A DNA stretch of 64,000 nucleotides, from positions 16,864,001-16,928,000 of the forward strand of contig OZ024764.1 in assembly GCA_964016885.1 (NCBI GenBank), written 5' to 3'. Under the pieces are notes generated by a model. That model was given only the letters and a program-made list of their open reading frames with translations, ran no database searches and was not told the origin of the DNA. Shown here piece by piece: positions 17,934 through 17,992 of this stretch. Source of the stretch: Eledone cirrhosa. Lineage: Eukaryota. The position numbers and the translations under genes were made by a program. Position 1 is the first letter of the stretch; every line of letters starts with the position of its first letter.

Positions 17934-17992
17934 GCTGTCTGATGAGGTCATAGCTGTTGAATAATGGTTATCACCGAAATATATATAACAGC
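17934..17992 (+). ncRNA. Type I hammerhead ribozyme (canonical core)
   Basis: Stem I GCTGT/ACAGC; core CTGATGA; stem II GGT-ATAGCTGTT...AATGGTTAT-ACC; GAAA; palindromic mini stem III TATATA; cleavage predicted after A17987. Confidence 0.8.

Follow-up and report, generated by a model that had tools for sequence, protein, structure and literature searches.

Is a hammerhead-like stretch of DNA in an octopod gene a genuine ribozyme and, if so, what kind of element brought it there, and does it cut the transcript of the gene in which it resides? The question is raised by a motif in a 64,000-nt stretch of Eledone cirrhosa DNA (GCA_964016885.1, contig OZ024764.1, positions 16,864,001 to 16,928,000; hereafter the window). 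An intact type I hammerhead core, open at helix I, can be read from the sequence at 17934-17992 (+), with the residues C3 U4 G5 A6 N7 G8 A9, G12 A13 A14 A15.1, and U16.1 H17 all in place. A first-pass annotation had named a type I hammerhead with a CUGAUGA/GAAA core, a 5-bp stem I, a long stem II, a palindromic helix III, and a cut after 17987; each of these is present in the sequence, H17 being A17987 (Table 1). The C.C mismatch of helix II is formed by 17949 and 17972, and three of the nine distal base pairs are G.U.

Table 1. Coordinates of the hammerhead, the repeat that carries it, its neighbours, the host gene, and the other hammerhead motifs (positions within the window)
Feature	Position	Strand	Basis or remark
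Coding exon 1, DOK4/5/6-like gene	5315-5365	+	tblastn of cephalopod homologues, residues 1-17
Predicted intron 1, 15,444 nt, GT...AG, phase 0	5366-20809	+	Homology and splice consensus
Left neighbour, fragment resembling the C-terminal part of a non-LTR retrotransposon protein	16930-17661	-	Translation, TRF
Dispersed repeat, ~370 bp, hammerhead near 3' end	17662-18034	+	Read depth edges, loose ends
U-rich leader	17910-17933	+	Sequence
Stem I	17934-17938 / 17988-17992	+	5 Watson-Crick pairs
Core C3-A9, CUGAUGA	17939-17945	+	Sequence
G10.1-C11.1 pair	17946/17975	+	Sequence
Helix II	17946-17975	+	12 bp: 3 bp, C.C mismatch, 9 bp, 4-nt loop
GAAA	17976-17979	+	Sequence
Palindrome AUAUAUAU, helix III	17979-17986	+	Sequence
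H17 (A17987), predicted cut just 3'	17987	+	Sequence
AU-rich 42-nt tail	17993-18034	+	Sequence
(TA)9 tract	18035-18052	+	Sequence; loose ends in 4 runs
Right neighbour, a different dispersed repeat	18054-18268	+	Blastn: five more partial copies elsewhere in the window
430-bp element holding the 20612 motif	20278-20705	+	Flanked on both sides by (TA)n tracts
Second hammerhead, U3-A8 core variant	20612-20658	+	DOK-like intron 1, 150 nt 5' of exon 2
Coding exon 2 (PH domain)	20810-21029	+	tblastn: residue 18 onward, AG just 5'
Further exons, IRS-type PTB domain	near 21764-21889, 23201-23395, 24128-24276	+	Homology
Third hammerhead-like motif	49721-49765	+	Relaxed descriptor
406-bp palindrome, arms 98% identical	55118-55523	both	Two back-to-back hammerhead motifs

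Scanning both strands of the 64-kb window with a full type I descriptor revealed 17934-17992 as the sole strict match. Block-wise dinucleotide shuffling of the window, repeated 200 times, produced no match of equal quality, and any looser match in three instances. A chance match in AT-rich, repetitive DNA would be congruent with two observations: the core pattern by itself is no rarity (12 matches in the window, where the shuffled mean is 4.9 and 12 were obtained in 7 of 100 shuffles), and the fold energy, taken alone, does not stand out (z -1.1). That reading is nevertheless refuted by the shuffles of the full descriptor together with the depth data given below, in which no other part of the repeat family is represented as well as the ribozyme; the reading retains next to no probability, and the hammerhead motif is real. 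The Rfam hammerhead models, proposed earlier as a check, left 17934-17992 unmatched both at the gathering score and at E ≤ 10, so the term "canonical," as used in the first-pass annotation, is valid for the core alone. Helix II, at 12 bp versus 4 bp, is too long, which takes the motif off the canonical loop 1/loop 2 geometry. The motif shares its catalytic core with Rfam Hammerhead_1 (RF00163) and the RECK-type hammerheads of amniote introns and is likewise intronic and in sense, but unlike these it is high-copy rather than single and conserved.

Four public runs (X1, X4, X5, and X8), originating from three studies and carrying two organism labels, were aligned on 17640-18040 at ≥80% likeness. 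Matching records numbered 1,884 of 16.3 M contigs in X1, 722 of 17.6 M contigs in X4, 54 of 0.76 M in X5, and 822 of 12.5 M reads in X8, and the spread of identities among them indicates many distinct copies of the repeat. Depth peaks at the ribozyme, reaching 41,022 in X1 versus 149-692 over 17668-17877, 10,878 in X4 versus 56-262, and approximately 579 in X8 versus 3-17 upstream; the ratio of ribozyme to upstream depth is approximately 40-100-fold, where run depths are not to be equated with copy numbers. At the 5' side the depth is 0 at 17640-17653 in all four runs and starts in the bin 17654-17667 in three of the four (later in X5), while the longest X4 piece starts at 17662. At the 3' side, among the 24 of 421 loose ends listed, those past 18035 consist of (TA)n in every run (48, 23, 6, and 94 records), which suggests that (TA)n is a trait of the family; the (TA)9 tract is the likely insertion target. 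A (TA)n tract about 50 bp beyond the motif had been noted before; the tract is present, beginning at 18035, 42 nt after the motif.

The copy at 17934 lacks approximately 8 nt near 17999-18001, including an AATAAA hexamer, which its relatives carry, as judged by loose ends past 18001 in 65 (X1), 67 (X4), and 162 (X8) records and by insertion rows at 17999. Five of the variants listed (40 of 138 variant rows) fall inside the motif, none of them at a core base. All four runs contain T17938C, at 16-37% of depth, and A17988G, at 6-27%. If present on one molecule, which the unphased tables do not show, the two changes would replace U-A by C-G at the first pair of stem I. C17975T and C17992T keep G.U pairs; since both are located at CpG sites, they may be simple decay. 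MFE folds reveal that residues 17928-17931 of the leader are able to add four base pairs to stem I with 17993-17996, past a 2-nt bulge. G17928A, which would convert a G.U pair of this extended stem to A-U, represents 42% of depth in X1, 49% in X4, 34% in X5, and 3% in X8. One opposite-strand joint of the repeat is found, in a single X4 contig, among the 15 of 39 joints listed. In metagenome contigs there were 0 exact matches to a 20-mer; in metagenome and viral scans a degenerate 18-mer recovered at least 119 stretches and a degenerate 20-mer one viral locus. These 120 loci were rejected as relatives, none of them showing likeness to the repeat outside the pattern itself (E 0.003 over 35 nt at best). 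Metagenome contig L077 possesses an unrelated hammerhead-like motif with the same core and helix II start, then GAAA.

A relaxed descriptor recovered six matches in the window versus a shuffled mean of 0.62 (maximum 4), and perfect-palindrome matches numbered four versus a mean of 0.03 (maximum 1), each over 300 shuffles. The 20612 motif has a GUC triplet, a near-palindromic helix III, and the same C.C mismatch in helix II as the 17934 motif; it scores 20.1 bits against Rfam Hammerhead_1, under the cut-off of 34, and its two-copy fold is predicted to be a double hammerhead. The 49721 motif has an unpaired base after A9, a 7-bp helix II, and a palindromic helix III, followed by AATAAA at 49767 and (TA)n approximately 40 nt further; its stem I, weak at 3 bp, has probably decayed. 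The cores within the 406-bp palindrome are located at 55271 (-) and 55370 (+). Their helix III is a single pair with GUAC as its loop, a U.U mismatch occupies the base of helix II, and the whole, which represents another family, looks like an inverted Penelope stub. The relaxed-descriptor match at 24698 is weak and was taken as chance. Two AT-rich near-perfect palindromes, at 40850-41342 (98%) and 13594-13938 (92%), were found to contain no hammerhead core.

The solo motifs at 20612-20658 and 49721-49765 have AATAAA directly 3' and (TA)n 38-48 nt later, the corresponding distance for the 17934 motif being 42 nt; positions up to 60 nt 5' of a (TA)5+ tract account for only 13% of the window. Neither shares sequence with the 17934 repeat (blastn within the window), and one layout in unrelated motifs suggests that several independent families end in a hammerhead, AATAAA, approximately 40 nt, and (TA)n. 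There are thus four hammerhead loci of the type found in Penelope-like elements (PLEs) in 64 kb, 0/4 of which reach the Rfam gathering score.

The hammerheads of metazoan PLEs are characterized as possessing a long helix II, a helix I of 4-5 bp, and a palindromic helix III between U-rich 5' and AU-rich 3' flanks, and as being mostly solo copies (PMC4209133). The 17934 motif resembles those described by Cervera & De la Pena (2014, PMC4209133) in its type I topology, 5-bp helix I, long helix II, G10.1-C11.1 pair, U-rich and AU-rich flanks, solo dispersed copies, and predicted dimer. Palindromic helices III are also found in the PLE variants of Drosophila willistoni, Aedes, and Marsupenaeus, and the D. 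willistoni motif shares with ours both the helix III layout (2 bp plus a palindromic 4-nt loop) and the AUA triplet (PMC4209133). The locus differs in its longer helix II (12 bp with the C.C mismatch), in having no linked ORF or second pLTR, and in lacking the unpaired base between A9 and G10.1 that is typical of PLE min-HHRs, a base which is also missing in the shrimp row and one Saccoglossus row of that paper. With the exception of this base, a hammerhead near the end of the element agrees with the traits and alignment presented there. In the portion of supplement 2 available from PMC4209133, the mollusc rows include no cephalopod.

The depth profile and record counts reveal the copy pattern of PLEs, that is, dispersed, mostly short, and 3'-biased copies. 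A tail of 30-40 bp and inverted truncated copies have been described in PLEs, and a microsatellite bias is hypothesised for the Neptune clade (10.1101/2021.04.23.441226). In the window and in all four runs a 42-nt stretch precedes (TA)n, a stretch that may be the "tail" in the strict sense. The repeat at 17662-18034 is like Neptune-clade elements in its (TA)n-abutting end, its tail of approximately 40 nt, and its 3'-biased copies, and an inverted back-to-back stub occurs elsewhere in the window. Naiads also target (TA)n but are without hammerheads in the sections of 10.1101/2021.04.23.441226 that treat them.

Protein searches with the repeat were blank. A phmmer search of 1.84 billion representative proteins resulted in 0 matches for an RT/GIY-YIG frame linked to the repeat, a word-index protein search with the upstream frame likewise resulted in 0, and Pfam analysis of all six frames of the repeat returned only DUF3130 at E 0.047. 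No PLE domain was present in the 187 stop-free frames scanned from the non-repetitive window. A coding remnant 5' of the ribozyme was considered and rejected, the apparent synonymous bias being gone in a permutation test (6/18 versus 5.1 expected, p 0.39); the 31 listed upstream variants exhibited no codon bias, whichever frame was taken (p 0.17 for the best single frame, p 0.57 and 0.89 for the best of six). At the 17662-18034 locus neither a target-site duplication nor a tandem or inverted pLTR is visible. Since a truncated end need not hold an ORF, the lack of one at so short a locus is not decisive. We consider it likely that the repeat is the 5'-truncated 3' end (pLTR plus tail) of a PLE or a non-coding derivative of one. 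It is probably an end of Neptune type, although the RT, linker zinc finger, and GIY-YIG protein that defines this clade was not found with it. Two further points speak against a PLE: the depth peak could also represent subfamilies with upstream parts under 80% likeness, and the size of 370 bp also fits retrozyme monomers.

Might the ribozyme instead sit at the end of a repeat of another kind (an unclassified SINE, or the tail of a LINE) that has a PLE layout by chance? No PLE protein is linked to it, and fragments of other retroelements flank it. The left neighbour, a putative CRE-type or CRE-like non-LTR element, lies head-to-head with the hammerhead repeat and includes a 79-bp tandem duplication (17114-17639, 6.7 copies; TRF); Pfam and homologue searches for its CRE-type identity were blank. 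The right neighbour is presumably SINE-like. The edges of the repeat, as determined from depth, exclude both of these elements, one of which faces away while the other follows (TA)n, and the layout matches that of described PLE ends; an origin from some other repeat is accordingly highly improbable, and a PLE end remains the preferred reading.

The window as a whole is rich in repeats, approximately 58% of it being tandem repeat (TRF), with long minisatellites at 14460-16465, 37024-40103, 43000-46242, and 58500-61000. A weak tRNA match (33687-33744 (-), 32 bits) directly 5' of a copy of the 18054-18268 repeat is probably the head of a tRNA-derived SINE. Inverted pairs of one dispersed family, with arms approximately 80% identical, are found at 7918-8347 and 48682-49137; this family, which is SINE-like in appearance, also occurs at 19830-20000 and from 41340. 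A 488-codon frame at 29129-30595 (+) matches RVT_1 (E 1.6e-29) and contains a weak PHD-like finger, and 3' fragments of this LINE family recur in the window, several with internal tandem duplications. The frames at 25205-25507 (-) and 47801-48091 (+) end in a common C2H2 zinc-finger-like motif and are probably the tails of one LINE family.

The first-pass annotation had offered either a PLE pLTR or a non-LTR retrozyme as the source. The latter would make this locus a solo monomer of a non-coding unit of 150-450 bp, which is amplified through circular RNA and is normally tandem. The repeat is like animal non-LTR retrozymes (PMC7229834; 10.64898/2026.07.22.740005) in being non-coding, approximately 370 bp in length, of type I, low in GC, and an intronic monomer. 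Mussel retrozymes measure 350-390 bp and are without the usual tertiary-contact bases (PMC7229834), while monomers are common, with >40% of Xenopus copies being intronic (10.64898/2026.07.22.740005). The two readings moreover overlap, since retrozymes are argued to derive from pLTRs (10.64898/2026.07.22.740005). Unlike retrozymes, the repeat forms no tandem array here, and no end-to-start joint exists among the 15 of 39 joints listed. Blastn within the 64-kb window located no second copy of 17662-18034, (TA)n rather than a next unit lies past the 3' end, and coverage is uneven, the depth being far from flat over the unit. A solo retrozyme monomer is therefore an unlikely, though not negligible, explanation; dispersed, 3'-biased, (TA)n-abutting copies favour the Penelope-like end over a tandem retrozyme.

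The exon structure of the host gene was inferred by homology and splice consensus. Exon 1 comprises 17 codons at the start of the PH domain, with a second in-frame ATG at 5312 and a GT at 5366. The best homologues of the exon are from Argonauta hians and Octopus vulgaris (4 matches among 24 candidates), and the two scanned homologues carry PH and IRS-type PTB domains (Pfam); the gene is read as a DOK4/5/6-like gene of an octopod. The motif had been placed upstream of the first recognised DOK exon, a position which has to be corrected: with tblastn-derived coding exons at 5315-5365 and from 20810 on either side, the hammerhead lies inside predicted intron 1, 2.8 kb 5' of exon 2. The proposals that it is in sense with the gene and intronic hold on this gene model.

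For the isolated motif 17934-17992, the predicted probability is 0.75-0.99 for helices I and II but 0.00 for the helix III pairs in the monomer, so that the fold previously called complete is so for the first two helices alone. With two copies the predicted MFE structure is a double hammerhead at -30.6 versus -24.4 kcal/mol for two monomers (6.2 lower), in which the stem I strands are swapped and helix III reaches 8 bp. These models agree with the dimer preference suggested in the first-pass annotation, and a dimer route is likewise described for PLE (PMC4209133) and newt ribozymes (PMC6765202). Stem I is predicted at P 0.60-0.99 for six of seven start points while the RNA ends near 18005, versus P 0.00 at all seven when the RNA is extended to 18060. 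Correct folding of stems I and II would thus be limited to a short transcription window, the downstream 40-60 nt abolishing stem I. Heterodimers between the 17934 motif and any of the three remaining ones in the window are not predicted to fold as double hammerheads, and this includes the sense hammerhead at 20612 within the same intron.

These predictions bear on whether the ribozyme has been co-opted to cut the DOK-like pre-mRNA co-transcriptionally, either alone or with the RNA of another copy, thereby tuning mRNA output. Such a role would fit the sense orientation, the intact core, the position relative to exon 2, the second sense hammerhead at 20612, the loss from this copy of the AATAAA kept by its relatives, and the brief folding of stems I and II predicted while the RNA ends near 18005; precedents are the RECK-type intronic hammerheads (PMC6155905) and the CPEB3 ribozyme (PMC10274809). 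It is opposed by the modelled absence of helix III in the monomer, the predicted loss of stem I in longer RNA, and the predicted failure to pair with the three other motifs, as well as by the fact that this is one of very many copies. The left-neighbour junction has a depth of 0 in all four runs and hence offers no sign of a shared insertion, although these runs fall short of spanning the stretch and coverage holes prove little. Furthermore, PLE hammerheads are reported not to cleave in monomeric form and to do so at a low level as dimers (PMC4209133), and an Anolis PLE hammerhead cleaved only with the element's protein (PMC11167929). Co-option is therefore very improbable.

Since a second copy is predicted to be necessary for the active fold, little cutting is expected. 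With no partner copy, stem I lost in longer RNA, and weak cleavage published for PLEs, the solo 17934 copy is on these models most likely a passenger, which would cut the pre-mRNA rarely or not at all. The earlier suggestion of relevance to the DOK pre-mRNA is in this respect not upheld by the folding predictions, and there is no indication of a host function.

Within the parent element, pLTR copies lying in tandem in a single transcript would join through their AUAUAUAU palindromes to form the 8-bp helix III, and the paired copies would then be cut after A17, processing the RNA of the element; both steps are modelled on the folding and on published PLE ribozymes. As is established for PLEs, AT-rich DNA would presumably be nicked by a GIY-YIG endonuclease; reverse transcription, beginning close to the 3' end of the RNA, would mostly stop early, resulting in short ends. 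The present copy probably inserted by this route at a (TA)n tract in predicted intron 1 of the DOK-like gene.

Our search of the open-licence literature located no description of PLE-type hammerheads in octopus, a topic that subscription papers (Lunse et al. 2016) may cover. The available parts of PMC8967140 and PMC12602865 do not mention ribozymes. In O. vulgaris, 190 families of PLEs are reported to make up 6.83% of the genome (PMC13282606), and 235 Rfam-type Hammerhead_1 loci are listed for the giant squid (PMC6962438). The present repeat contributes an octopod family to the Penelope-type hammerheads, many of which are already known, and illustrates that these escape Rfam; the hammerhead end is a handy marker for the annotation of Penelope ends in cephalopod genomes. 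A more far-reaching proposal, which we regard as a long shot, is that octopus introns are seeded with sense, dimer-dependent hammerheads of several Penelope families, the solo copies of which cut only in trans with RNA of the same family. Were this true, transposon expression would switch on cleavage of the DOK-like pre-mRNA, thereby linking retroelement activity to host mRNA output. If solo intronic copies do cut host pre-mRNA, many genes would be affected, since PLEs constitute approximately 7% of the O. vulgaris genome.
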